Position numbers and translations under genes: made by a program
Source: Clostridiales bacterium
GTDB lineage: Bacteria > Bacillota > Clostridia > Christensenellales > JAISNN01
Assembly (NCBI GenBank): GCA_031273965.1
Contig: JAISQX010000058.1
Coordinates: forward strand, 1 to 32,266
DNA length: 32,266 bases
Reading direction: 5' to 3'
In this document: positions 1,604 to 31,295 of the stretch, piece after piece
How the letters are laid out: every line of letters starts with the position of its first letter
How positions within the stretch are numbered: the first letter of the stretch is position 1
The notes under the pieces: model-generated
Told to the model about the DNA's origin: nothing
Databases searched by the model: none
Seen by the model: only the letters and a program-made list of their open reading frames with translations

Positions 1604-1642
1604 TATTTTTTTAAAAAAAGAATAATTGAATATTTTTAGTAT

Positions 1643-1681
1643 CGGGGCTTACAAAAAAAAATTGTAAGCCCCGTTTTTTTC
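1643..1681 (+). terminator. Intrinsic terminator after tuf (also lies 3' of the convergent small ORF)
   Basis: 12-bp stem CGGGGCTTACAA (1643-1654) / TTGTAAGCCCCG (1662-1673) with an A7 loop, followed by T7 (1674-1680). In the minus direction there is no U-run after the hairpin. Confidence 0.85.
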
Positions 1682-1684
1682 GGG

Positions 1685-1822
1685 CTAAAAATTACGCCCT
1701 TGTTTCTCCTTTAAAAATTTACAGCCGTCGCATTTTAGACACGCTTTGGGCGCTTGATTGTTTTCGGTAAATTGCTTCGTGCCGCAATTAGCGCAAGTAT
1801 AAGCAGTGGTTTGGGTTCTCAT
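1685..1822 (-). CDS. 45-aa zinc-ribbon protein (CxxC...CxxC), unlisted in the ORF track
   Basis: My translation of the minus strand is MRTQTTAYTCANCGTKQFTENNQAPKACLKCDGCKFLKEKQGRNF, with ATG at 1822-1820 and TAG at 1687-1685. AAGGAG lies 11 nt upstream of the ATG. The ORF ends 4 nt from the tuf terminator hairpin. Confidence 0.6.
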   Translation of the reverse strand: MRTQTTAYTCANCGTKQFTENNQAPKACLKCDGCKFLKEKQGRNF

Positions 1823-1977
1823 ATTTTATCTGTCTCCTTAATGGTTTTTATATATAATATTTTGGGCTATAAAATTTTTTTTAAACCTGCTTTTATCTAT
1901 CGAATATCTTTAAATTAATTCAAAATTTTCCGAGCAAAAAAGGAAATAAACATTAATCGTTTTTTAGAAAATAGATA

Positions 1978-2006
1978 TTGACAAACGGACTAAACGTGGA
2001 CATAAT
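1978..2006 (+). promoter_or_regulatory. Sigma-A type promoter (TTGACA-17 nt-CATAAT)
   Basis: -35 TTGACA at 1978-1983, 17-nt spacer, -10 CATAAT at 2001-2006. It lies upstream of a 13-codon mini-ORF and the 2232 gene. Confidence 0.5.
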
Positions 2007-2152
2007 GAGAACAAGCACAGAAATCCAAAATCAGAAGGATATTTTATGATAAAAAAGAACAAGGCAATTTTGTTTATTATAATGTAAAAAGAAGCCGCAA
2101 TAGTTTTTTTACGCGCAAACTCCGATAAGATAAAATATTTTCAAATTAAATC

Positions 2153-2181
2153 TTGCATTTTTACATGAAATATTGTATAAT
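2153..2181 (+). promoter_or_regulatory. Sigma-A type promoter (TTGCAT-17 nt-TATAAT)
   Basis: -35 TTGCAT at 2153-2158, 17-nt spacer, -10 TATAAT at 2176-2181, about 50 nt upstream of the ATG at 2232. Confidence 0.6.
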
Positions 2182-2231
2182 GATTGTGTAAAAGCGCTTT
2201 TATCGACGCGCTGAAAAAAATCGGAGGGTGT

Positions 2232-2726
2232 ATGAGACCAAAACCCAATGCGGAGTATGCCGACATTTATTATAACAGGCACATTCTTGGAGAAAAATCT
2301 TATGTATCGTTTTGCATACAATTGTGCATTTTTTTGGGCGGAGGAGCGCTTGCCGCGATAGGCATAATGCCTATTTTGAGCGGTCAGCCCTTACAAATCG
2401 GAGGGATAATCATGGCGGCGGCGGGAGGAATTCCCGCGATAACGGCGCTTGTTCGGGGAATAATATGGATATTTTATCCGAGGACGCTTATAGCCGTAGA
2501 GCCGGGAAAGGTGATACTCTTCCCGCGAAATAAAAAAGGGCGCGAATTGATAATTCCGCTGTCCGATATAATAAAAATACGCTTAAACGACTGGTGGAGT
2601 CCTTGCTTCGCTTATAATAACTACAGTATAACGCTTTTTTTTAGGCACGACAGCCCTATAAAGATAAAGTACGTAAAGGCTTCCCCGCATGTGGTATCTC
2701 AGCTTAAACATTTAAAGCATTCTTAA
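2232..2726 (+). CDS. Hypothetical two-TM membrane protein with a C-terminal soluble domain
   Basis: The ORF-track ORF 2184-2726 starts at a TTG. I prefer the internal ATG at 2232, preceded by GGAGGG (2223-2228). There are two hydrophobic helices (FCIQLCIFLGGGALAAIGIMPIL; IGGIIMAAAGGIPAITALV). I recognise no family. Confidence 0.7.
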   Translation: MRPKPNAEYADIYYNRHILGEKSYVSFCIQLCIFLGGGALAAIGIMPILSGQPLQIGGIIMAAAGGIPAITALVRGIIWIFYPRTLIAVEPGKVILFPRNKKGRELIIPLSDIIKIRLNDWWSPCFAYNNYSITLFFRHDSPIKIKYVKASPHVVSQLKHLKHS

Positions 2727-2733
2727 ACGTAAA

Positions 2734-2764
2734 GACTCGCGCTTGAGCGCGGGTCTTTTTTTTT
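2734..2764 (+). terminator. Intrinsic terminator
   Basis: 9-bp stem 2734-2742 / 2747-2755 (one G-U pair) with loop TTGA, followed by T9 (2756-2764). Confidence 0.85.
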
Positions 2765-2930
2765 ACGGCTTAATCGGTATACGATTAAAATACGAGAATA
2801 AGCTCGCTCTTAACGTCCGCAGGCAGGTCGATGAGGTATAAGTAATTCTAACTTTATACTCAAAGAAGTAAATTTTATCAAAAAGAGAAAAGTAAATTTT
2901 TTTAAAATTAAGAGAAATTTTCAAAAAGTA

Positions 2931-2958
2931 TTGACAAACCGAAAATAAGTGATATAAT
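2931..2958 (+). promoter_or_regulatory. Sigma-A promoter with extended -10 (TTGACA-16 nt-TGaTATAAT)
   Basis: TTGACA at 2931-2936, TG at 2950-2951, TATAAT at 2953-2958, about 60 nt upstream of the lipoprotein gene. Confidence 0.75.
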
Positions 2959-3020
2959 GAAGATAAGCTTGAATATTTCTAAATATCAAACAAATTCATG
3001 TAAAGAGGAGTAAAAAAATT

Positions 3021-7469: not shown

Positions 7470-8456
7470 ATGTCGATTGATTTGGTTATGGATTTGGGGT
7501 CGGAAAATGTCAAGATATATAAGTGCGGCGAAGGATTGGTGTTTAACGAGCCCGCGATAGCGCTGGTTGACAGGACGGCGGATAAGCTTTTGCTTGGAGA
7601 AACGGGATATAAAGCCAAAAAGATTGCCGCCGAGACGCTTGAGCGGTACACGCCCGTGCATCCAATAAAAAATGCCGTCATAACCGATCAGGAAGTGGCG
7701 GAGCTTATGTTATGCGATTTTTTGGAAAAAATCAACGTCAGACCCACAATGAAAGAAAGGCTGCGTATAATAGCTTTGACGGCGTGCGGACTTACTTTTA
7801 GCGACAGAAAGGTTTTTGCCGGAATTTTAAAAAATATCGGAGCGTCGCGCGTTTATATAGTCGACGGATTGTTTGCTCTGTATTCGTATTCGGAGGTGAG
7901 CCGCGGATTTTTTGTCGACGTGGGCGGCGCCGTTGCGAACGTTGCCTATATAACCGAAGGCGGTATAGTTTCCGGATGCCATGCCAATATAGCCGGCAAC
8001 GCCATGAATGAGGAGATCTGCAATATGGTTCATTCAAAGTATGCTTTGAGCATTGGCGGTCGCGCCGCCGAAAGATTAAAGCTGTCGTCCGGCGGATTGG
8101 AGCCGAACATAAAACAAAAATTTCCCGTGAGCGGAAAGGATATCGTTACGGGCGAGTTGAGAAGCGCCGAAATAGCCGGTTCGGATATAAGAAGCTGCAT
8201 AGTCGTAACCCTTGATAAACTTGTGTTGCTTATAAATTCCATGCTTTTTTCACTCCCCGAAAAAGACTATAATTTTATCTGTAAAAACGGTATATTTTTA
8301 TCGGGGGGAACGGCGAGACTTTTGGCTCTTCCGGAGTATCTTGCCGAACGCTTAAAACTCAAGATTTGCGTTGTCAAGGACTGCGAAGAAGCGGCGGTAA
8401 CCGGAGCCGCGCGCTTCTATGAAGAAAAGGGATTATTAAGTGATTTTACGGTATAG
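7470..8456 (+). CDS. mreB: MreB/Mbl-family actin-like protein, divergent paralogue
   Basis: It aligns by eye with MreB landmarks: DLGSENVKIY, EPAIAL, HPIKNAVITD, VDVGGAVANV, IAGNAMNEEI and FLSGGTARLL. A GAGG SD lies upstream. Confidence 0.8.
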   Translation: MSIDLVMDLGSENVKIYKCGEGLVFNEPAIALVDRTADKLLLGETGYKAKKIAAETLERYTPVHPIKNAVITDQEVAELMLCDFLEKINVRPTMKERLRIIALTACGLTFSDRKVFAGILKNIGASRVYIVDGLFALYSYSEVSRGFFVDVGGAVANVAYITEGGIVSGCHANIAGNAMNEEICNMVHSKYALSIGGRAAERLKLSSGGLEPNIKQKFPVSGKDIVTGELRSAEIAGSDIRSCIVVTLDKLVLLINSMLFSLPEKDYNFICKNGIFLSGGTARLLALPEYLAERLKLKICVVKDCEEAAVTGAARFYEEKGLLSDFTV

Positions 8457-8566
8457 CGAAGAGAGAGGATAGGGGGGATTCTATCAAAAATTTTCCGACT
8501 TAACGATAAATACATGAAATAAGAATAAAATTAAAATAAAAAATCTAAAAAAAAAGAGGTATAATT

Positions 8567-17080: not shown

Positions 17081-17210
17081 CGCGAACCGCATAAAAACCT
17101 CTCTTATTCTGTATACTACTTATTATCTTACAAATATTAATCGCGCCGTTAAGACTCGTGCGCCGTATTAATTTTGTTGACGATAGAGTATGTTGAAAGG
17201 GGGGAGAGAT

Positions 17211-18476
17211 ATGTCCGTTAAGCTTGCCGCAGCCATTTTTAATATTCTATCCGTGATAGCCGCGGGTTTATTTTTTTATCCTCTTAACAGCCGCTTGCGC
17301 GTTAACTATTTTGACGAGGCGGGCAACCGTATTGAGAGCGCGGAATATATTTGCAATTATCGCGGAATTACATATAAGGAAGCGCAAAGGATAATAGGCG
17401 TTTTTAAAAAACGCGGACTAAGCGAAAGCGCCGCCGCGGGAGAAATATACGTAGGTCTATACGCCGACCTTAGCCGTTTTGCCGCCGTGTACGGATATGA
17501 CGCGATAAACGCGGAGGCGGAATTTTTTCCGGAGGCGGAAGAACGGTTTAAATATAAGGAAGGAGTTTTTGGAGCGGGTCTGGACGAAAAGAGCGCGATA
17601 GACGCTATTATAAAAAGCGTCGGTAAAAAAAGCGTGGATGTGACGTTGAGAGTAATAAGATACGAACCGGAATATACGGAGGAGCTTTTGAGGGAAGTGA
17701 CGAAGTATAGAGCATCGTATTCGACAAGGTATCCCAATTCAAAACCGGAGAGAAAGAGCAATATAAAGCTTGCGGCAAGCAAACTAAGCGGCGCGGTTAT
17801 AAACCCTAACGACGTCTTTTCATTTAATGAAACGGTCGGTAAAAGAACGGCGGAACGCGGCTTTTTGAGCGCGCCTATAATATTTGACGGACAGCTTGTC
17901 GAGGGCGTAGGCGGCGGCGTATGTCAGGTCTCCACAACGCTCTATAACGCCGCTCTGTACGCGAACCTTGAAATAGTTCACGTCAAACGTCACAGCTCTA
18001 TGGTTGGATATGTCCCTCCGTCGTTTGACGCGATGGTTAGCGAATTAAACGACTTAAAATTTAAAAACAACACCGGATATCCGCTGTATCTGGCGGCGCA
18101 TGCCGACGACGACTTATTGAATATCGTATTTTACGGGAAACCTATGGAAGAAGGGTTAAAGATAAAGCTTAGAAGCCAAGTAAACAAGATAATACCCGGT
18201 ACGGATAAAGTTTTGATAAACGACGGCAGCTATGAGATTCCGGAGAATGAAAAATTCTTGAGGCTTGCGCGAAGCGCAAACGGTTGCGTAAGCGAGGGGT
18301 ATGCCGACTATATAAAAAACGGAACGACGATTAAATCGGTAAAAATAAGAAGCGACGAGTATAAACCTATGCAAGGCTTAATAGTTATGAATGCGACTAA
18401 AAAGGAAGAGCTTGCGAATCCGTCAAAAGCCTTACCGCTTATTCGTGAAAAAATAGGCGGTTGTTTCACGCTTTGA
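17211..18476 (+). CDS. VanW-family protein with an N-terminal membrane anchor
   Basis: I prefer the ATG at 17211 (GGGGGAG SD) over the track's 17190. The TM helix is LAAAIFNILSVIAAGLFFY. The VanW core motif GGGVCQVSTTLYNAAL is present. Confidence 0.88.
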   Translation: MSVKLAAAIFNILSVIAAGLFFYPLNSRLRVNYFDEAGNRIESAEYICNYRGITYKEAQRIIGVFKKRGLSESAAAGEIYVGLYADLSRFAAVYGYDAINAEAEFFPEAEERFKYKEGVFGAGLDEKSAIDAIIKSVGKKSVDVTLRVIRYEPEYTEELLREVTKYRASYSTRYPNSKPERKSNIKLAASKLSGAVINPNDVFSFNETVGKRTAERGFLSAPIIFDGQLVEGVGGGVCQVSTTLYNAALYANLEIVHVKRHSSMVGYVPPSFDAMVSELNDLKFKNNTGYPLYLAAHADDDLLNIVFYGKPMEEGLKIKLRSQVNKIIPGTDKVLINDGSYEIPENEKFLRLARSANGCVSEGYADYIKNGTTIKSVKIRSDEYKPMQGLIVMNATKKEELANPSKALPLIREKIGGCFTL

Positions 18477-18491
18477 GCCGTTTTTATAGAA

Positions 18492-18515
18492 ATTTTTGCG
18501 GTGCGCGCATAAAAT
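18492..18515 (+). repeat. Copy B of the short element flanking the vanW-family gene
   Basis: ATTTTTGCGG-t-GCGCGCATAAAAT, starting 16 nt after the vanW stop. It can fold as an imperfect hairpin, but no U-run follows. Confidence 0.6.
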
Positions 18516-18671
18516 TATAGACGGTACAGAACGCTTAAATGACAGTTTTTTTGTGCCGATTTGAGCGTGAAAAGGCTCTTTAGCGTATTGCGAGAGGCAA
18601 TGCGCTTACAGAATTCTGTAGTATATTATAATCCTTTATCCGCATACATGCGGCGGACTATTAAAAAATAA

Positions 18672-18689
18672 GGTATAAGACCGTTTTTT
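18672..18689 (+). repeat. Conserved 18-mer GGTATAAGACCGTTTTTT, copy 1
   Basis: Identical to 19702-19719. It has a weak hairpin (GGT-ataag-ACC) plus T6, so at best it is a weak terminator. Confidence 0.7.
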
Positions 18690-18724
18690 CTTTTTGTCTA
18701 TACTCTACCGATATGAAATAGGTT

Positions 18725-18754
18725 CTTGTGGTTGCGGGTTGGGAAAACCACAAG
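18725..18754 (+). promoter_or_regulatory. Inverted repeat / hairpin CTTGTGGTT-N12-AACCACAAG, module 1
   Basis: 9-bp arms at 18725-18733 / 18746-18754. The arms TTGTGGT/ACCACAA recur at 19753-19780 with an unrelated centre. Confidence 0.55.
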
Positions 18755-18811
18755 AAAGACGAAATAGCTTTTTAAAAAGCTTTCCGTCAACGGAAAAATA
18801 TATTTTTTCCA

Positions 18812-18841
18812 TTGACACGGGATTATATTATATTTTATAAT
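18812..18841 (+). promoter_or_regulatory. Sigma-A promoter, module 1 (TTGACA-18 nt-TATAAT)
   Basis: TTGACA at 18812-18817 and TATAAT at 18836-18841. It is preceded by the near-palindromic A/T tract GGAAAAATATATTTTTTCC (18792-18810). There is no ORF downstream. Confidence 0.55.
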
Positions 18842-19174
18842 TAAGAACGTAGATAGCCAACGTCGCTATTACGCACAAAAAAGCGATAGACCGGGTTTTT
18901 GGGTTTGTCACAAAAGAAGAAAGTATAACGAGAGAGCGATAACAAGCGGCAGAATCGGTTTTGTAGCCGTCTGCTATAAGACTTGTGTAGACGATATAAA
19001 TAAGAAGAAATATAAAGGAAAGAAAGCTTTTCCTTGCGCGCGTGGCTTTAGACGCGGTGGAAACCGCTTATGCGAAGAGAAGTCAGTAATTAAAGACACA
19101 AGCGGGCGGGGCAATTAAAAGACCGTACAAGCGCAATAACAGGGGATTAAGAAGGGTATAAGTACAAAAAAACA

Positions 19175-19385
19175 AAGCGGATAAGAAACGACGCATAAGA
19201 CAAAAAGGGCAAGAAAGAGACGGCGTTTCGTTGGCGGTTGCAGGGAAGCGGATAAGAAACGACGCATAAGACAAAAAGGGCAAGGAAGAGACAGCGTTTC
19301 GTTGGCTGTTGCATGGAAGCGGATAAGAAACGACGCATAAGACAAAAAGGGCAAGGAAGACGGCGTTTCGTTGGCTGTTGCAGGG
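19175..19385 (+). repeat. Three tandem direct repeats of 71, 71 and 69 bp
   Basis: The unit AAGCGGATAAGAAACGACGCATAAGACAAAAAGGGCAAG(A/G)AAGAGAC(G/A)GCGTTTCGTTGGC(G/T)GTTGCA(G/T)GG occurs at 19175, 19246 and 19317. R1 and R2 differ at 4 positions. R3 lacks 2 nt. Confidence 0.95.
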
Positions 19386-19701
19386 GAAAAAGTAATGAGG
19401 CGTACCCCCGACATACTCAAAGGCTTTTCCGTTTACGGTGGCAAAGGAAGATTCGCGGGCTCAAATAGGGAAGAGATAGAGGCGCAAACAATCTCGGCTG
19501 TGAATAAAAATTATTCGCAGTTTGAATAAGGAAGAAATAAATCCCGTTCGGGACGGCGCGTAAAGGGGTTTTTACGTTTTAGTGCAAGAATGTTTATACG
19601 CGACGAACGGTAAACGAAAAGCGCCTATAAAATCTCAAAGCGTGCGTAAAAAAGATATAGAAGCATATGATAGCGTTTAAACCCCATCGGAGGTCAAGTT
19701 C

Positions 19702-19719
19702 GGTATAAGACCGTTTTTT
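19702..19719 (+). repeat. Conserved 18-mer GGTATAAGACCGTTTTTT, copy 2 (possible weak terminator CGGT-ataag-ACCG + T7)
   Basis: Identical to 18672-18689. Here the stem is 4 bp and is followed by T7. Confidence 0.7.
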
Positions 19720-19752
19720 TAAGAAAAACTATTAATGCAAAAAAACGGCGGA

Positions 19753-19780
19753 TTGTGGTCGGAGAGGAGTGAAACCACAA
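19753..19780 (+). promoter_or_regulatory. Inverted repeat / hairpin TTGTGGT-N14-ACCACAA, module 2
   Basis: 7-bp arms identical to module 1, with the different centre cggagaggagtgaa. It ends 60 nt upstream of the -35 box at 19840. Confidence 0.55.
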
Positions 19781-19839
19781 AAAACATAGGGAAAATTGTA
19801 AAAAATATTCCGAAATGTAAAAAAAATAATATTTTTTTA

Positions 19840-19869
19840 TTGACAACAAGATAAATAAAGGTATATAAT
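19840..19869 (+). promoter_or_regulatory. Sigma-A promoter, module 2 (TTGACA-18 nt-TATAAT), likely promoter of the giant gene
   Basis: TTGACA at 19840-19845 and TATAAT at 19864-19869, preceded by a long A/T-rich UP-like tract. A second TATAAT sits at 19875-19880. Confidence 0.6.
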
Positions 19870-20277
19870 CAAACTATAATTAAATGATTAATGGGAAGAG
19901 GCTCGAATAAAATATAAGGTATAGAGCTGAAAAAATATTCTTATTGATTAGGTACGACGTAAAAAGCGAAGGAGGAATATGTAAAAATTCCGAATGGCAC
20001 TTTGACGCTGAAAAAACTGTAAAAACAAAAAAACGTCGGAGGACGACGATAAAACATGTCGCGCGCTATAAGCGAAGCGTTCGTAATTATACGATATACT
20101 TAAGACACAAGCGCGATAAACGCGCATTACGCGCGACAAGCGAAGCGGAGATATTTAAAAGCCGAAGAGTCGAATAAAAAAGCGGAGATTATCGAGGGAA
20201 AACCTCGTTGATATATAGAAACAAAAAAATTCGGTTAATGGAAACCGAAAAAACAAAAAATTGACTGGAGGTCAGAT

Positions 20278-23200
20278 ATGGGTAAGAATGGGTATGTACA
20301 GCCGGCGGTGCGCGGCGTACACGGCGCGAGAGCGCGCAAGCAAACGCTTTGGGTTTGGGCAGGTATGCTCTTTTTAAGCGTGATGTTTTTATTAGCGTTG
20401 ATGCCCGGCTACACGGGGCATTCGTACGGCGCTGCGGCGGCGGGCGGTCAGGAGATATCGGAGAGCGCCGACGACGGCGACAGCTTCGTCGCCGCGGATA
20501 AAGATATTGGCGATATGACGATAGACGAGATAATATTGTTGTTGGAAACGTCGGCGTCTTCTCCGGAGGGCGAGGTTATTTATGACGGAACCGTGCCCGA
20601 ATATGGCGGACTCACGGAGGGATCGCCTTTTTACATAGTGCTTAGTTCATTGAGAGCTATTCCGGGTATTTTGGAAATAACTATCGATATTCCGGGTTTG
20701 ACAAAGAATGCCGGTGACTATCCTTTTACTACTACCTTAAGGACTAAGCCGGGGTATACCTTTAACGAGGGAACGGCTTCGGCGAGCGATTATACGATAA
20801 ATCCGGAAAAAACCGTGATAACGATACAAAAGGAAGGCATCGAATTTCACATTAAGCCGATGATTTTGGAGCTTTCTCAAAAAACGCCGATCATATCAAA
20901 GACTTACGACGGCTATACGACTCCCGGAACCGCTTTGACTATAAGTAATTTCGGTACATACTTTGATACTCCCGCGTTAGGAGCAGGCGATACGATAGCT
21001 AACGTGTTTGACGTCGGAAGCTGCTATTATAACGATAAGGACGTGGACGACGCGGACACGTTTACGATAAATCTTTCGCTTAAGACGGATAACTATTTAT
21101 TTAAAAATGGCGTGTCGAATTTTGACTTTGACGCGAGTATAAATCCGAAAGCGATAGATTTTGAGATAATAGACGCCCAAAATAAGATATATGACGGCAA
21201 CGCTACGGCGACGCGGGGCGAGCATTTTGATTTGAAATTCAACGGCGCGCACGAAAACATATCCACAACGGATTATATCTTGGACAATGCGTTCTACAAT
21301 AATGCGAATATCGGTAAAAATAGATTTATCACCGTGCAAATCACATTGGCGGATACCAAAAAAATGCATAACTACTCGTTGCCCGTTAACGAGGTATATA
21401 CGGACGCGACGCTTGAGATTGAAACCAATATCAGAGTATCGGAAACCGAGCTGAGAGAGATAACCGACGTCTTGCTTACGGATAAAGAATCGGAATATAA
21501 CGGAATGACCAAATCCGGTATATACGACAGCGCGAAAGCCGCTATTTTTGTGATGTTGAACAAGCCGGGGTTCCCAGAGAAATTGGAAAGTATAGATATA
21601 TCTTTTGCTCCGACGAGTGTTATCGACGCGGGAACGTATACCGTAACCATAGTTATAACTCTTACCGCAGATACAATATTTTCGGACAACAAAGAGGAAA
21701 CAAGGGAATTTACCCGGGTGTTAACAATAACTCCGAAAGTGCTTACCGTTTCCGGTATAACCGCGCAAAACAAAATGTATGACGGGACAAACGTGATAAC
21801 AATAATCACGGACAGTATGAATGTAGGCGGAATAGCCGCTATCGACGATAATAATGAAGCGCTGCTTAAAGTAACGGTTAGAGGCGGCAACGGTCATACC
21901 TTGACCGCCGCTCCGGGAGTGAATAAGACAGTATTTATCGAGCTTGATATAGAGGGTTCGAGAGCGAGTAATTACAGTGACAACGCGACCGCCAACACAA
22001 CGGTGACAATAAGACCTACGGGTCAGGAGGAGCCGGTTGACAATCTTGGTACGTCGCCCAAAATAATCGGGTTAACCGTAGACGAGATAGCCGCGTTATT
22101 TGAAGGCATGGAGAGCGAGTACAACGGACTTGTGCAGAACAATCTCTATAGCGCGATAATAACATATTTACGCAGCCAAGATGGTATAGGCGACATAAAA
22201 ATATCCTTTATTGACGGCATAGAGAAAAATGCCGGAGTATATAATGTGAGGCTAACCTTAACGGCGATCGAAAATCCGGACGAGATTAATGGAAATTTGA
22301 ATCCGATAGCGTATGCCTTCAGCAACGGAGAAGCGGTGCTTGAAATAAACGTACAGTTGACTATAACCAAAAAAGCCTTGACGGTAAGCAACGTAACCGC
22401 CCAAGATAAAGAATACGACGGCAACACGGTTATCGATATGGATACGAACGCCGCGGTGTTTGACGGACAGATACCGACGGACGATTTGACTATATCGGTT
22501 GTGGGCGAAACAGGCTTTACGGCGGACGCCAGCGTGGGCAAGAATAAAAAGGTATATGTGGAACTGACTCTCGGCGGAGCGGATAGAGATAACTACTTAT
22601 TGACGGCGTTGACCGACGTCACGGCGACGATAAGACCTACGGGGCATGAGGAGCCGACGGATCTTCCGGAGACGGAGCACTTATTAGTCGGTTTAACGAT
22701 AGACGAAATAACGGCTTTGTTAGCCGATAAGAGCAGCGAATACGACGGAACCGTGCAGAGCGGATACTACAGCGACATTATAGCGTATTTGGAAAGCGTT
22801 GTCGGTATAGCGGACGTGGACGTCGAGTTTGACAACTTAAAGAAAGACGCGGGCGAATATGACGTTAGATTTACGTTAAAAGCCGACGAAGATCCCGTAA
22901 ATGAGGAAGCGTATGCCTTTAGCGACGAGGAGTCGACTCTTATCATAGACGTAAAGTTTACGGTTGAAAAGAGAGCTTTGAGAGTCACGGGCGGCATAAC
23001 CGCGTATGACAAGACTTATAATGGCGACAACGTGATACCGATCACCGAAAGCGGCGTTAGCTATGACAGAAAAATAACATGGGATGATTTGGTTGCAAGC
23101 GTCCTCGGCGGCGTAGGATATACGGACAACGCGAGCGTCGGAAAGAACAAGCCCGTGTACGTAAAGCTTAATTTTACGGGAGCCGACAGAGATAACTATA

Positions 23201-26200
23201 AGGTTGAGGCGTATGTTGACGGCGTAACGGCGACAATAAGACCGACCGGCGCGGAAGAGCCGGACGATCCGATCACGGAGTCCAAAATAGTCGAATTGAC
23301 GGTAGCCGAGATAGAAGAGACTTTGACCGGTCACAGCAGCGTATACGACGGAACCGCGCAAAGCAACTATTACGACGATATCAAAGCGTATTTGGAAAAC
23401 GTTGTCGGTATAGCGGACGTGGACGTCGAGTTTGACAACATAAGGAAAGACGTGGGCGTATACGACGTAAGAATAACCTTAACGGCGGAAGAAAACCCGA
23501 ACGGAAATCCCGCTTTTGCGTACGGATTTAGCGACGGAGAATCGACGCTTGTCATAAACACGCAATTGACGATAACAAAAAGAGAGCTGACGATAACCGG
23601 AGGCATAACCGCCGAGGACAAGACTTACGACGGTAACAATGAAATAACCGTCGCTATAGGAAGCCTGCAACAGATAGGGAAAATACCCTCGGATGATTTG
23701 CAATTTGGCGTCAAAGACGGAAAAGGTTATACGGATAACGCGAGCGTGGGAAAGAATAAACAGGTATATGTAAACCTTATTCTTTCGGGCGCGGACGCGG
23801 ACAACTACAAAGAGAAGGCGTATATAGAAAACACGACTGTAAATATATTGCCGAGCGGTGTAAATCCCGATCCGGATCCCAATCCGGATCCGTCGGACGA
23901 CAGGATAATAGACTTGACGGTGGAGGAAATAGAGGCTTTATTCACCGATAAGCGCAGCGAATATGACGGAACCGTACAGATCGGCTACTATGATGATATT
24001 AAGGACTACTTATTATCCGTGGAAGGTATAGCAAGCGTGGACGTCGTGTTTGACAACTTGAGAAAGGACGCCGGCGCATACAACGTAACTATAACGCTTA
24101 GGGCGGATGAGGACACGAACGGAAATCCCGCTTTGGCGTACGGATTTAGCGATATGGAGTCCGAGCTTGTCATAAACGCCGTATTTACGGTTGAAAAGAG
24201 AGCTTTGACGGTAACGAGCGGTATAACCGCCTACGACAAGACTTACGACGGTAACAATGTAATACAAATCGACATAAGCGTTGTGAATTTTGACAGAAAA
24301 ATAGCCAGCGACGACTTGAGTATCGACTTGAACGGCGTTAACGGCTACACCGACAACGCGAGCGTCGGAAAGAACAAACCGGTGTACGTAAAGCTTGATT
24401 TTACGGGCGCCGACAGAGATAACTATAAGATTGAGGCGTACGTCAACGACGTAACGGCAACGATAAGACCCACGGGCGTGGACATACCCGACACGAATCC
24501 CGACGACGATAGAATAATAGACGGAATTGAGGTCGAAGAAATAATCGCGCTTTTTACGGACAAGAGCAGCGAATATGACGGAACGGTACAGAACGGATAC
24601 TTTGAATCTATAAGAGCTATGCTTTTGGCTATCGAGGGAATAGGATACGTATATGTAGACTATGGCGCACTGACAAAGGACGTCGGCGTTTACGATATCA
24701 AGGTTACGGTAAAGGCGGAAGAATACCCGAACAGGAATCCCGCTTTGGCGTACGGATTTAGGAACGGAGAGTCCGAAATAGTCATAGATGCGAAATTTAT
24801 TATAACGCCGAAGATGCTAACCGTGCACGGAGTAACGGCGGAGAATAGAAAATATGACGGAACGCCCACCGTAGACCTTGAAGTGAATAACATGACGATA
24901 TCCGGAGTGATATCGGGCGATGACGTTAATGCGACGATAACGGACGCGGACACCAACAAAGATGGAATACAAGGCACCGTCGAAACCGCCGCACCCGGGA
25001 AGAACAAAACCGTCTATGTGAATTTGTCGCTTAGCGGAGCGGATTTATCTAATTACAGCATAAAGGGCATAGCCGGTACGGTAAATATAACCGTCGGAGA
25101 CACGGAACCCGATAGCTCCGAAATCATAGGATGGGACGTTGTGGACGCCATAAAATATGCCGTGACGGATATAAGAACGACGTATAACAAGACCTCGCAA
25201 AAAGATGCGTTTGACGCGTATATTGATTCGGCGATAAGAGATTATACCGATAAAGTCGTTGTCTCTTCGGTGACCTTTGACAGAGATCCTTTCAACGCGG
25301 GAGCGTATACGGCGACTATAAGAATTGAGGCGTTCAGAGATTATCAAACGGCGTATGTGTTCGGTAACGGAGAAAGCTACTTTGAGTTTGAAAGAACCTT
25401 GACAATCGACAGAAGAGAGGTTATAATTCTCGGCGTGACGACGGCTTATCCGAACAACACCAGACCGTACGACGGAACCAACGTGGTGGCGATAGTAATG
25501 CCGGGCGCTAATAATTACAGCGGAATAATAGCCGGCGACGTAATATATATCTCCGCGCCCGTAGGCAATGTCGGCTATATGGTCGACGCCAGCGTGGGAA
25601 AAAACAAGAAAGTTGAAATAAACGCCACTATAGGCGGGGCGGACGCGCATAACTACGCGCTCAGACCGATTGCGGATGTGACGGTAACCATAACGCCGAC
25701 GCAAAACCAAAACGGCGAGGACTTGATAGTCGAAATGTCGGTTGAGGAAATAGCCGCGCAGATTTCACCCCTGTCAATCGAATATGACGGAAAGGTGCAC
25801 GACTGCGCAACACTGTACGACGAGGACGCGAACGGCATTAAAGACGGAGTGTACAACACCGTGTACGCCAATCCTTTTGACGGAATAAAATACGCATTGG
25901 AAGCGGTTATCGGAATTGCGGACGCGAGGTTTGACATAGTGAGATTGTCAAAAGACGCGGGCATATATAGGGTAATCGTTACGATAACGGCGGAATCCGA
26001 TCCGCTTGTGCCTATGGCTTACGCTTTCGGTAACGGCGAATCTAAGATTTCGTTTGAAACGACCTTGACCATAACGAGAAGGCAATTGACCGTGACTTCC
26101 GGGGTAGAGGTGGAAAATAAAGTCGGCGGCAAAGGAACTAAGATTTATGACGGAAAAACCGACGTAACGCTCAATGTCGCGACTATGGCGCCTAATTGGA

Positions 26201-26799
26201 AAGGCAAAGTGGCGGAAGACGATTTGTCGCTCATGCTCATTCATAATAACGGAAAGGCGGTTGGCTATACGGCTTCTCCGAATGCCGGAAAAAACAAGGC
26301 GATAAGCGTAAAGGCTTATCTCAGCGGAGCCGATGTGAGAAACTATGACGCGAACGTTATATTGGAGGGAGTATCGGTCGATATCTTGCCGAGAGAAATA
26401 ACCGCTAAGGTTACTATCAATGAAAAAGATTACGACGGAACGACCGGCGCAACCGTAAAAGAAGTGGAATTTGACAACCTCGTGGAAGGCGAAACGTTGA
26501 TAGAGGGCGTTGACTATACTATAGAAGCTCGCTTTACGGACGAAGAACCCGGCGACGACAAGAGCGTAATAGTAACCATAAACCTCGACAATGGAAACTA
26601 TGCGTTCTCCGACGCAAATCCGATTAACGGAACGGTTACCGACGGCGGCGCACACGCGGTGTTTGAGGTTAGGGGCGGAAGAATCGTTTCTACGGGAATT
26701 AAGCTTTGGGGCTGGTTCTTACTCGGCACGGGCACATCCTTTGCGATAGGAATATTCTTGTCTTTCTTAAAGAAAAGCGGAATGATTTTGGCGGCGTAA
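20278..26799 (+). CDS. 2173-aa modular cell-surface protein with alternating MBG-like and YDG-type adhesin repeats, an N-terminal signal peptide and a C-terminal TM anchor
   Basis: GGAGG at 20267-20271, 6 nt before the ATG. The signal/TM segment is WVWAGMLFLSVMFLLALMP..SYG/AAA. The motif set xYDG(T/N)..., GKNKxVYV and GAD(R/A)xNY occurs about 11 times, alternating with SEYDGTVQ...DAGxYDV...T(I/V)xK(R/K)xLTV modules. The C-terminus is LWGWFLLGTGTSFAIGIFLSFLKKSG. The domain family names come from motif recognition only. Confidence 0.9.
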   Translation: MGKNGYVQPAVRGVHGARARKQTLWVWAGMLFLSVMFLLALMPGYTGHSYGAAAAGGQEISESADDGDSFVAADKDIGDMTIDEIILLLETSASSPEGEVIYDGTVPEYGGLTEGSPFYIVLSSLRAIPGILEITIDIPGLTKNAGDYPFTTTLRTKPGYTFNEGTASASDYTINPEKTVITIQKEGIEFHIKPMILELSQKTPIISKTYDGYTTPGTALTISNFGTYFDTPALGAGDTIANVFDVGSCYYNDKDVDDADTFTINLSLKTDNYLFKNGVSNFDFDASINPKAIDFEIIDAQNKIYDGNATATRGEHFDLKFNGAHENISTTDYILDNAFYNNANIGKNRFITVQITLADTKKMHNYSLPVNEVYTDATLEIETNIRVSETELREITDVLLTDKESEYNGMTKSGIYDSAKAAIFVMLNKPGFPEKLESIDISFAPTSVIDAGTYTVTIVITLTADTIFSDNKEETREFTRVLTITPKVLTVSGITAQNKMYDGTNVITIITDSMNVGGIAAIDDNNEALLKVTVRGGNGHTLTAAPGVNKTVFIELDIEGSRASNYSDNATANTTVTIRPTGQEEPVDNLGTSPKIIGLTVDEIAALFEGMESEYNGLVQNNLYSAIITYLRSQDGIGDIKISFIDGIEKNAGVYNVRLTLTAIENPDEINGNLNPIAYAFSNGEAVLEINVQLTITKKALTVSNVTAQDKEYDGNTVIDMDTNAAVFDGQIPTDDLTISVVGETGFTADASVGKNKKVYVELTLGGADRDNYLLTALTDVTATIRPTGHEEPTDLPETEHLLVGLTIDEITALLADKSSEYDGTVQSGYYSDIIAYLESVVGIADVDVEFDNLKKDAGEYDVRFTLKADEDPVNEEAYAFSDEESTLIIDVKFTVEKRALRVTGGITAYDKTYNGDNVIPITESGVSYDRKITWDDLVASVLGGVGYTDNASVGKNKPVYVKLNFTGADRDNYKVEAYVDGVTATIRPTGAEEPDDPITESKIVELTVAEIEETLTGHSSVYDGTAQSNYYDDIKAYLENVVGIADVDVEFDNIRKDVGVYDVRITLTAEENPNGNPAFAYGFSDGESTLVINTQLTITKRELTITGGITAEDKTYDGNNEITVAIGSLQQIGKIPSDDLQFGVKDGKGYTDNASVGKNKQVYVNLILSGADADNYKEKAYIENTTVNILPSGVNPDPDPNPDPSDDRIIDLTVEEIEALFTDKRSEYDGTVQIGYYDDIKDYLLSVEGIASVDVVFDNLRKDAGAYNVTITLRADEDTNGNPALAYGFSDMESELVINAVFTVEKRALTVTSGITAYDKTYDGNNVIQIDISVVNFDRKIASDDLSIDLNGVNGYTDNASVGKNKPVYVKLDFTGADRDNYKIEAYVNDVTATIRPTGVDIPDTNPDDDRIIDGIEVEEIIALFTDKSSEYDGTVQNGYFESIRAMLLAIEGIGYVYVDYGALTKDVGVYDIKVTVKAEEYPNRNPALAYGFRNGESEIVIDAKFIITPKMLTVHGVTAENRKYDGTPTVDLEVNNMTISGVISGDDVNATITDADTNKDGIQGTVETAAPGKNKTVYVNLSLSGADLSNYSIKGIAGTVNITVGDTEPDSSEIIGWDVVDAIKYAVTDIRTTYNKTSQKDAFDAYIDSAIRDYTDKVVVSSVTFDRDPFNAGAYTATIRIEAFRDYQTAYVFGNGESYFEFERTLTIDRREVIILGVTTAYPNNTRPYDGTNVVAIVMPGANNYSGIIAGDVIYISAPVGNVGYMVDASVGKNKKVEINATIGGADAHNYALRPIADVTVTITPTQNQNGEDLIVEMSVEEIAAQISPLSIEYDGKVHDCATLYDEDANGIKDGVYNTVYANPFDGIKYALEAVIGIADARFDIVRLSKDAGIYRVIVTITAESDPLVPMAYAFGNGESKISFETTLTITRRQLTVTSGVEVENKVGGKGTKIYDGKTDVTLNVATMAPNWKGKVAEDDLSLMLIHNNGKAVGYTASPNAGKNKAISVKAYLSGADVRNYDANVILEGVSVDILPREITAKVTINEKDYDGTTGATVKEVEFDNLVEGETLIEGVDYTIEARFTDEEPGDDKSVIVTINLDNGNYAFSDANPINGTVTDGGAHAVFEVRGGRIVSTGIKLWGWFLLGTGTSFAIGIFLSFLKKSGMILAA
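22010..25090 (+). repeat. Five tandem ~603-620-bp coding repeats (about 201-206 aa each) inside the giant gene, with weaker copies on both sides
   Basis: The module-end motif (..TIRPTG..) recurs near 22012, 22632, 23236, 23848, 24466, 25085, 25690 and 26385. Segment 22783-22836 matches 23386-23439 at 53 of 54 nt. Segments from about 23114 and about 24349 are roughly 90% identical over about 130 nt, by eye. Confidence 0.9.
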
Positions 26800-26827
26800 T
26801 AAGTGAAGGTTTAAGAATTCTTTAAAA

Positions 26828-29865: not shown

Positions 29866-29894
29866 TTGACATTGACTCGAATATATTATATAAT
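29866..29894 (+). promoter_or_regulatory. Sigma-A promoter (TTGACA-17 nt-TATAAT) for the GLUG-repeat gene
   Basis: TTGACA at 29866-29871 and TATAAT at 29889-29894, about 90 nt upstream of the ATG at 29985. Confidence 0.7.
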
Positions 29895-29984
29895 AGTAAA
29901 AGTGATTATATGTCTGTGCCGATACGGGAGCGGGCATATCCTCGGCTTATATCGCGTCGTTGCTTTAGTTGGGAGGAGAACCGC

Positions 29985-31295
29985 ATGAAGAAAAAGCTCT
30001 TATATATATTAGTTTTCTTGGTCGCTTTCGGCACGGTGATTTTGATGTTGCCATATTTCCGAAATACCGATCAGCCGAGAATGAGGTTTGTATACGCGAG
30101 CGCCATAAGCGCGGAGCACGCGACACTGCCCGGCGACGGCATAATAGACGGAGACGATTATACGGGCGGCGGAATAACGCCGGCGGACGTTGTGGAAGTA
30201 AAGTCCGGAACGAATGTCGTAAGCTATAAGCTTGTGCTTAGCGGCGCGCAAAATTACATCCTATTGAACGATATTATTTTACCGGCAAAACCCTTTACCA
30301 TAGAGGGCTTGAGCGCGGGGCAGATATTTAACGGAAACGGCTACAAAATCGACGGCGTTGTCATTAGACACGGGCTTGTAAGTAAAAATACGGGAACGAT
30401 CAAAAATCTTATAATCGGAGCGGGTTGCGTCGTTACGGGCGCGGCTGTAGCCGAAGAGAACTTAGCGAGCGGCGTTATTCTCAACGTAAAAAATTACGCG
30501 TCGGTCGCGCCTTATGTCTATACCGTGACGAGCGGCAACGTAAAGACCGAATACAGCATCGCCGGCGGATTGGTTTTTGACAATTACGGTACGATATCCG
30601 GTTGCGACAATTTCGGCGTCGTCAACGGTAACGGCGGAATAGCCCAAATCAATAAAGAGGGCGGATTGATTACAAACTGCGGCAATGAGGGCAGGATAAC
30701 CGGCGCAAAAGCGAACGCCGGAGGAATAGCCGGAGAAAATTACGGAAAAATAGAGAAGTCGTCCAACGGCGGCGCCGTTGATATGAAGGCAAAGGAAGCC
30801 GGCGGAATAGCCGGAATCTCGCACGGAGTCATTGACGACTCTGAAAACTATGAAACGGCGACGGTTGCGGGCGTGAGCAGCGCGGGCGGAATAGCCGGTT
30901 TATTTAAAGGCGAGATAAGCAATTGCCGTAACTACGGACTGATAAAAGCGACGGGAAGCGCCGGCGTGGCGGGCGGAATAGCCGGCAAATCGGTTTCGTC
31001 GGACAGCAAAATCACCGCTTCAAAGAATACCGCCGTCGTCATAGGCGATACGTCAAAGGGTATTTTGGGAAGCGGAGAAGCCAAACTTGAGAATGTCGTC
31101 AATTACGGAAGACTCAACGGCAAAACCGAGTTGACGGTACAGATAGACGAATTCCTTGAAAAAACAAAGATTATCATTATGGCAATCGTCGCGGCGGGCG
31201 TTGTCGCGGCTATGATTTCGATAGGAAAAGATCGGTATAAAACTATAAGAGACAGACGAGCGGAGATAGAATCCGTGCTTAATTACGGCGCTTAG
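29985..31295 (+). CDS. GLUG-motif repeat surface protein with N- and C-terminal TM segments
   Basis: I prefer the ATG at 29985 (GGGAGGAG at 29971-29978) over the track's 29910. The N-terminal TM is [18 protein letters not shown]. There are at least 6 repeats of N(Y/F)GxIxxxxNxGxV...(A/G)GGIAG. The C-terminal TM is [18 protein letters not shown]. Confidence 0.85.

Follow-up and report, generated by a model that had tools for sequence, protein, structure and literature searches.

A duplicated promoter module ahead of a giant YDG-domain surface-protein gene in an uncultured Clostridiales bacterium: a possible distal tandem promoter with a long untranslated leader

We describe a repeat-bearing tract, poor in open reading frames (ORFs), at positions 18848-19720 of the + strand of a contig from the metagenome-assembled genome of an uncultured "Clostridiales bacterium". 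The contig was analysed over its whole length of 32,266 base pairs (bp) and is called the window below. The tract lies in a 1.8-kb intergenic region (18477-20277) between a VanW-family gene and the gene for a giant YDG-domain surface protein, the adhesin, and an initial annotation had read it as a discrete ~0.87-kb purine-rich non-coding RNA (ncRNA), perhaps a CsrA/Rsm-type sponge. We find that the promoter ahead of the tract (P1) belongs to a module that is present a second time, around the promoter of the adhesin gene itself (P2). Our preferred explanation, which we hold tentatively, is that a lineage-specific duplication provided the YDG adhesin gene with a distal tandem promoter and a long untranslated leader. 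The tract is thus most likely fairly ordinary, a new example of a known tandem-promoter/long-leader arrangement.

The sigma-A promoter that had been proposed for the tract was confirmed as TTGACA-18-TATAAT, a 12/12 match to consensus at 18812-18841, and P2 is an equally exact match 1028 bp further downstream (Table 1). The window contains five exact consensus promoters, all on the + strand, against 0.01 expected; three of the five sit ~15 to 410 nucleotides (nt) upstream of ORF starts, with the one at 19840 serving the adhesin gene. Both P1 and P2 are accompanied by the same set of elements. The 18-mer GGTATAAGACCGTTTTTT occurs in two exact copies in the window (0.03 expected), one upstream of each promoter, and between 18-mer and promoter lies the inverted repeat TTGTGGT-N14-ACCACAA, a candidate operator, which has only these two matches in the window (0 expected) and whose centre is ~108 nt upstream of the inferred transcription start. 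Downstream, the window holds two exact matches to ACAAGCG-N22-ACAAGCG and no more, one at 19098 and one at 20107, ~240-260 nt from the respective -10. The six motif anchors keep their order from one unit to the other, at offsets of +1030, +1027, +1028, +1009, +1009 and +1005, and since all of these fall within 1005-1030 bp, the units are collinear. The second copy of the module and the paired ACAAGCG motif had been missed in the initial annotation. We also considered ATAAGAC and AAGCGGA as further motifs and rejected them, as their enrichment is due to the tandem repeat and to coding repeats of the adhesin. The 18-mer does not appear to be a widespread element, given that a search of JGI metagenomes returned 12 single matches, all in unrelated contexts and chance-like.

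Comparison of the two units at the level of short words agrees with the motif anchors. In a diagonal band, unit 1 and unit 2 share 82 6-mers, as against 27 +/- 8.7 after shuffling, a number that none of 500 shuffles reached, and the leaders alone share 18 7-mers in such a band (5.4 +/- 3.2 by shuffling, with 2 of 1000 shuffles getting as high). A local alignment of leader with leader is not significant (z = 1.06), and between the perfect motifs the alignments of unit 1 with unit 2 look near random by eye. The preservation of perfect motifs amid such diverged sequence suggests that both copies of the promoter module are under selection.

Table 1. Positions of the promoter-module copies and of other features of the window
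Feature	Position (strand)	Remarks
P1, distal promoter TTGACA-18-TATAAT	18812-18841 (+)	12/12 consensus match
P2, proximal adhesin promoter TTGACA-18-TATAAT	19840-19869 (+)	12/12 match; followed by TATAATCAAACTATAAT, compare relative L183
18-mer GGTATAAGACCGTTTTTT, copy 1	18672-18689 (+)	140 nt upstream of P1 -35
18-mer GGTATAAGACCGTTTTTT, copy 2	19702-19719 (+)	138 nt upstream of P2 -35; the 3' T-run of the initial annotation
Inverted repeat TTGTGGT-N14-ACCACAA (candidate operator), copy 1	18726-18753	86 nt upstream of P1 -35
Inverted repeat TTGTGGT-N14-ACCACAA, copy 2	19753-19780	87 nt upstream of P2 -35
AAGACACAAGCG	unit 1 19093; unit 2 20102	Holds first ACAAGCG of the N22 pair (19098 / 20107)
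Second ACAAGCG of the pair	unit 1 19127; unit 2 20136	
AAAGCGGA	unit 1 19174; unit 2 20179	
5' portion of predicted P1 transcript	18848-19174 (+)	Collinear with first ~310 nt of adhesin leader; ACAAGCG at 18942, 19098, 19127
Tandem repeat, 3 copies (71, 71, 69 nt)	19175-19385 (+)	94% identity, non-coding
Orphan ATG ORF, 44 codons (MRRTPDILKGF...)	19395-19529 (+)	AGGGGA 7 nt upstream; missed in the initial annotation
Sole locally structured segment of the tract	19488-19607 (+)	z = -2.8 (sliding 120-nt scan)
Adhesin leader, 402 nt	19876-20277 (+)	Structured, minimum free energy z = -3.8; ACAAGCG pair 20107/20136
VanW-family gene	17190-18476	Adjoins intergenic region on its upstream side
Surface protein, 2173 aa, 10 YDG domains	20278-26799 (+)	Signal-like N-terminal segment, hydrophobic C-terminal segment
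Strong intrinsic terminator, the first after P1 and P2	26824-26860 (+)	16-bp stem, -23.8 kcal/mol, T8

The module is also found outside this genome. The collections searched held no close relatives of the organism. A first scan of GTDB genomes by way of VanW gave no result, and the VanW homologue nearest to ours has 59% identity, with synteny only partly kept. An RNase R-based scan recovered 47 loci, the nearest (62% identical) being on a short contig with secG and an ABC ATPase gene and with no adhesin, and the 47 loci showed no intergenic similarity. In two more distant relatives reached through VanW homologues, L183 and L181, the VanW gene is followed within a few kb by one for a giant YDG protein. 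The L183 locus has a perfect TTGACA-17-TATAAT with TTGTGG-N16-CCACAA exactly 86 nt ahead of it and TATAATCAAAATATAAT after the -10 (the equivalent at P2 being TATAATCAAACTATAAT), and a ~600-nt leader precedes the gene for a 6642-aa YDG protein. In L181 a perfect promoter stands ~1.48 kb upstream of the YDG gene, again with a long leader, and the inverted repeat is absent from this promoter. From the promoter module and long leader of these relatives, we consider that a promoter module with a long, ORF-free leader is probably a conserved trait of YDG loci of this kind, in which case P2 would be the ancestral copy and P1 a duplicate restricted to the present lineage.

Leaders cannot be aligned between the species, and those of the relatives are repeat-rich and strongly structured, with z = -5.1 for the leader of L183 and z = -7.8 for that of L181 (minimum free energy, MFE). 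In the L183 leader a 27-nt GC-rich arm occurs three times in alternating orientation (8239-8266 +, 8316-8342 reverse, 8512-8538 +), permitting two mutually exclusive long helices in an attenuator- or switch-like layout, and a 37-nt direct repeat is present at 8418 and 8562. The leader of L181 (18950-20105) carries at least nine arms of one family of 25-38-nt inverted repeats (for example AATATCTTTTTTAAATCTATC... / ...GATAGATTTAAAAAAGA), spaced 20-110 nt apart, an array that could represent a multi-hairpin leader or invertible segments. In the window, the proximal leader holds several units of an A-run followed by a hairpin that read as minus-strand terminators (20034-20048, 20111-20125 and 20230-20249); this leader matches no Rfam family.

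Given that the promoter and the ORF-poor repeat tract are real, transcription probably begins near 18848. The initial annotation had the transcript end at a 3' T-run, which is the second 18-mer copy. The T7 run there is preceded by a hairpin of only 3-4 bp and -3.4 kcal/mol, whereas genes of this contig end in terminators with stems of 12-20 bp and energies of -20 to -30 kcal/mol; the mini-hairpin is no credible terminator. A scan of the + strand from 18797 to 20356, which takes in the adhesin ATG at 20278, detected no terminator-like site, so that the idea of a discrete ~0.87-kb RNA ending at the T-run finds no backing. The three short hairpins named in the initial annotation do exist, and the structured segment near the end of the tract contains one of -11.9 kcal/mol at 19496-19522, followed by UUUG, along with others at 19542-19554 and 19559-19576 (the latter followed by UUUU). 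The hairpins of this segment are weak terminators at best and were not detected by the scan. The tract is also C-poor and G-rich, with C exceeding G in just 19 of 1352 windows of 78 nt, which would make it a poor substrate for Rho.

Taken together, we propose that the YDG promoter-leader cassette was duplicated in tandem in this lineage, and that P1 may be a functional second adhesin promoter, having retained the upstream elements (18-mer and inverted repeat) and the downstream ACAAGCG pair. Of the suggestions in the initial annotation, the one made last, a decayed paralogue of the adhesin leader, came closest to the evidence, since collinear anchors link the module around P1 and the ~330 nt after it with the promoter and leader of the adhesin. 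Since the same elements are kept at both promoters, shared regulators are probable, and P1 would be controlled by the regulator or regulators of P2. The P1 RNA is predicted to be untranslated, purine-rich and largely unstructured, and, with no effective intrinsic terminator and as a poor Rho substrate, it would mostly continue past P2 into the adhesin gene, ending at the strong terminator at 26824. The tract would then form the distal part of a ~1.44-kb 5' leader in a tandem-promoter arrangement, and the three-copy 71-nt array may be a recent internal expansion. Firing of P1, read-through and regulation in common with P2 are what we infer; the motif architecture, the duplication and the conservation in one relative can be read directly.

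Several observations weigh against this account. Homology between the leaders outside the promoter module relies on a few short motifs. The evidence for read-through from P1 is solely the absence of a terminator, and the hairpins with short U-runs (19496-19525 and 19559-19584), together with the T7 run, could terminate transcription partially. The tract is unstructured (z = -0.23), while the P2 leader (-3.8) and the leaders of the relatives (-5.1 and -7.8) are structured, which makes it atypical as a leader of this gene family. Finally, the 44-codon ORF within the tract has a plausible Shine-Dalgarno (SD) sequence and gene-like codon usage and could be the real cargo of P1.

The arrangement has parallels among known systems. 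Two promoters and long stabilising 5' untranslated regions (UTRs) have been documented for Lactobacillus S-layer genes (PMC3666127), and the likeness to slpA of Lactobacillus brevis and L. acidophilus lies in the two same-direction sigma-70-type promoters upstream of one large surface-protein gene, the long untranslated leader, the lack of a terminator in between, and the presumably high expression of that gene. What we found at the present locus fits this pattern, with two + strand promoters, no terminator detected between the distal one and the gene, and a module kept in L183. However, the promoters here are 1 kb apart, as opposed to tens to ~100 nt, and the distal promoter is a recognisable paralogue of the proximal one, upstream operator included. 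The stabilising S-layer UTRs are structured, whereas the distal tract is not and is known from its sequence alone.

A second comparison is with switches that work by inversion. The cwpV gene of Clostridioides difficile is an example of a surface-protein gene controlled by an invertible promoter/leader switch. It resembles the present locus in the long leader that separates a strong promoter from a large surface-protein gene; the leaders of the relatives are likewise rich in long inverted repeats, and an inverted repeat matching at 17 of 19 positions brackets P2 and the adhesin start codon. This last repeat (19023-19041 / 20332-20350) encloses P2 and the entire proximal leader, reaches ~18-24 codons into the adhesin gene, and could reflect long-range RNA pairing in P1 transcripts, an inversion site, or chance. 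Unlike the cwpV switch, neither P1 nor the tract is flanked by clear inverted repeats. A 14-nt inverted repeat at 18784/19425 is about as frequent as estimated for chance, and the Pfam scan of window ORFs turned up no recombinase gene.

One alternative, which we judge unlikely, is a discrete ~0.7-0.9-kb purine-rich ncRNA, transcribed from P1, co-regulated with the adhesin and acting in trans, for example as a decoy. Its 3' end would be at the weak hairpins and U-runs (19522, 19580) or at T7 (19719), and the ACAAGCG pair together with the array of three 71-nt repeats would provide a platform that titrates an RNA-binding regulator. Such an RNA would account for a perfect promoter apparently held by selection, for an ACAAGCG pair whose spacing from the promoter equals that in the adhesin leader, for the presence of the tandem array, and for the closeness of the sole segment with local structure to a possible 3' end. 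The G+C content of the tract, 44%, also exceeds that of other intergenic regions (~23-43%). Against these points stand the lack of a credible terminator in a genome that uses strong ones and the lack of any structure signal, either over the whole tract, whose MFE equals that of dinucleotide shuffles, or in the 71-nt repeat units, whose z values lie between 0 and -0.7 against shuffles. No Rfam family matches the tract at gathering score in a search of the whole window, and the Rfam comparison proposed with the initial annotation, made for 18400-20400 at E <= 10, gave chance-level matches only (adapt33, SQ2397 and BaMV CRE). Nor is there homologous sequence elsewhere: nothing resembling the tract was found in 62 loci, in the loci of the relatives, in JGI metagenomes, or by blastn in plasmids and phages. 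Viral contigs gave 0 matches to the repeat core and 118 stretches with the ACAAGCG motif pair, which we presume to be chance.

The features that had suggested a CsrA-type function proved weaker than they first seemed. Purines do make up 51 of 71 nt in the first repeat copy, yet the excess over the tract is modest (63.6%, where the whole window has 56.9% and its + strand coding sequence 57.2%); nearly all window genes are on the + strand, and a purine skew runs along the entire contig. Purine richness is also not conserved, being 49% in the leader of L181 and 60% in that of L183. The GGA positions listed earlier are all present, but without enrichment: the tract contains 16 GGA, where dinucleotide shuffles have 19.0 +/- 3.1 and the frequency on the rest of the strand predicts 20.4; AGGA is likewise unremarkable, and ANGGA occurs 8 times as against 6.8. 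Like CsrB, RsmY and RsmZ, the tract is non-coding, has a promoter to itself and contains both repeated units and some A(N)GGA sequences. In contrast to them, it has no enrichment of GGA, no CsrB/Rsm-type match in Rfam at E <= 10 and no terminator, and its repeat units form no GGA-presenting hairpins; no member of the CsrA family was detected among the ORFs scanned in the window, a 32-kb contig of the assembled genome. With OLE, GOLLD, ROOL, raiA and HEARO the tract shares a size in the 0.6-0.9-kb range and a Firmicute host, but it has no covariance-model match at E <= 10, folds with shuffle-like energy and lacks homologues, so that a structured large ncRNA is not borne out. The tempting call of a new large ncRNA or CsrA sponge is one that we have removed as unsupported.

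It is also unlikely, in our estimate, that P1 drives the mRNA of a small protein, with a ~550-nt leader, the 44-aa orphan product of 19395-19529, and the hairpins at 19496-19580 as a weak terminator region. No + strand ORF of at least 60 aa exists in 18848-19720, as had been stated, and because the length of the repeat unit is no multiple of 3, the array itself is taken to be non-coding. The 51-codon ATG ORF at 19313-19468 reported earlier is present, with codon usage like that of non-coding sequence. In the 44-codon ORF the ATG follows AGGGGA at 7 nt, the structured segment falls at and just past its stop codon, and NCBI annotates a 52-aa TTG-start version from 19371 as hypothetical protein MDR1905621.1 (locus tag LBQ27_01720). 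By codon usage, the open stretch 19341-19526 comes second among 335 non-gene open stretches, with a score inside the range of 17 real genes (0.11-0.42), though this statistic is noisy at 44 codons. However, the SD-like sequence is the end of the third repeat copy, the relatives have no evident equivalent ORF, and neither Pfam nor NCBIfam has a family that matches any of the small ORFs or open stretches of the interval. In a HMMER scan of 1.84 billion representative proteins, the ORF found only itself and two Ig-repeat proteins. We rejected the latter as homologues, since their E-values sum one 26-aa match over 7-9 near-identical repeats; the single high-scoring segment pair has 27 bits and a pairwise E = 3e-5, which by our own rescaling to the size of the library corresponds to thousands of expected chance matches. 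The ORF is an unverified orphan.

More doubtful is the view that the tract is a functionless relic, that is, neutral debris of a duplication, perhaps with the decayed 5' end of a paralogous gene, and that P1 is without consequence. The absence of structure, the absence of sequence conservation beyond the contig, and frame 0 of 18849-19529, which has 4 stops in 227 codons and mildly positive coding scores in parts, would all be in keeping with decay. A relic would nevertheless not be expected to retain so perfectly, amid near-random sequence, its 18-mer, both arms of the inverted repeat, the -35 and -10 hexamers and the ACAAGCG pair, which suggests purifying selection. In a search of 5.8 billion proteins the 226-aa conceptual translation matched none at E <= 10, and the tract resembles neither the adhesin nor other proteins encoded in the window. 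We had considered a pseudogene, which was rejected as tblastn, run with every window protein as query, reached no E-value under 0.09 in the interval, and a decayed 5' coding region of the adhesin, rejected for want of similarity (z = -0.1 to -0.7). Least probable is that the P1 unit is a decoy derived from the leader, a discrete and co-regulated transcript that retains the ACAAGCG-N22-ACAAGCG site of the adhesin leader, has gained the platform of three 71-nt repeats and, by titrating an RNA- (or DNA-) binding regulator, adjusts how strongly the giant YDG adhesin is expressed. If true, this would be a sponge that arose by duplication of the 5' UTR of its own target.

The surroundings of the locus provide some further observations. 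Downstream of the VanW stop codon there is no strong terminator (in 18477-18671 we found a 5-bp hairpin at 18640-18653, -6.2 kcal/mol, without a T-run), and a promoter-like site with a 10/12 match is located at 18605-18632; transcription of VanW may also run into the intergenic region. On the other side, secG and RNase R follow the adhesin gene, whose ORF contains a perfect TTGACA-17-TATAAT on the coding strand at 25399-25427, ~1.4 kb ahead of the stop. Another perfect consensus promoter (29866-29894) directly precedes a 461-aa ORF without a Pfam family (29910-31295). A gene-poor stretch of 1.4 kb downstream of EF-Tu (1604-3020) has strong terminators at 1643-1673 and 2731-2758 and holds a TTG-start ORF of 180 aa (2184-2726), for which Pfam has no match; the perfect promoter that it contains at 2931 precedes an ORF of 296 aa, again without a family. 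Searches for transfer RNA and transfer-messenger RNA genes found none.

What seems to us worth keeping from this locus is the inverted-repeat-plus-promoter module of giant YDG adhesins, along with the repeat-laden leaders of the relatives. The module lends itself to follow-up and consists of TTGTGG-N16-CCACAA placed 86-87 nt upstream of the -35 of a consensus promoter and followed by a long leader. It is kept ahead of giant YDG-domain surface proteins in an uncultured lineage of Clostridia and is duplicated in the present genome. The motifs shared by the two copies would be concrete targets in the search for a regulator once a complete genome or a culture can be had, and if P1 is active, the locus would be a clear case in which duplication of a promoter cassette altered the expression of a surface adhesin.

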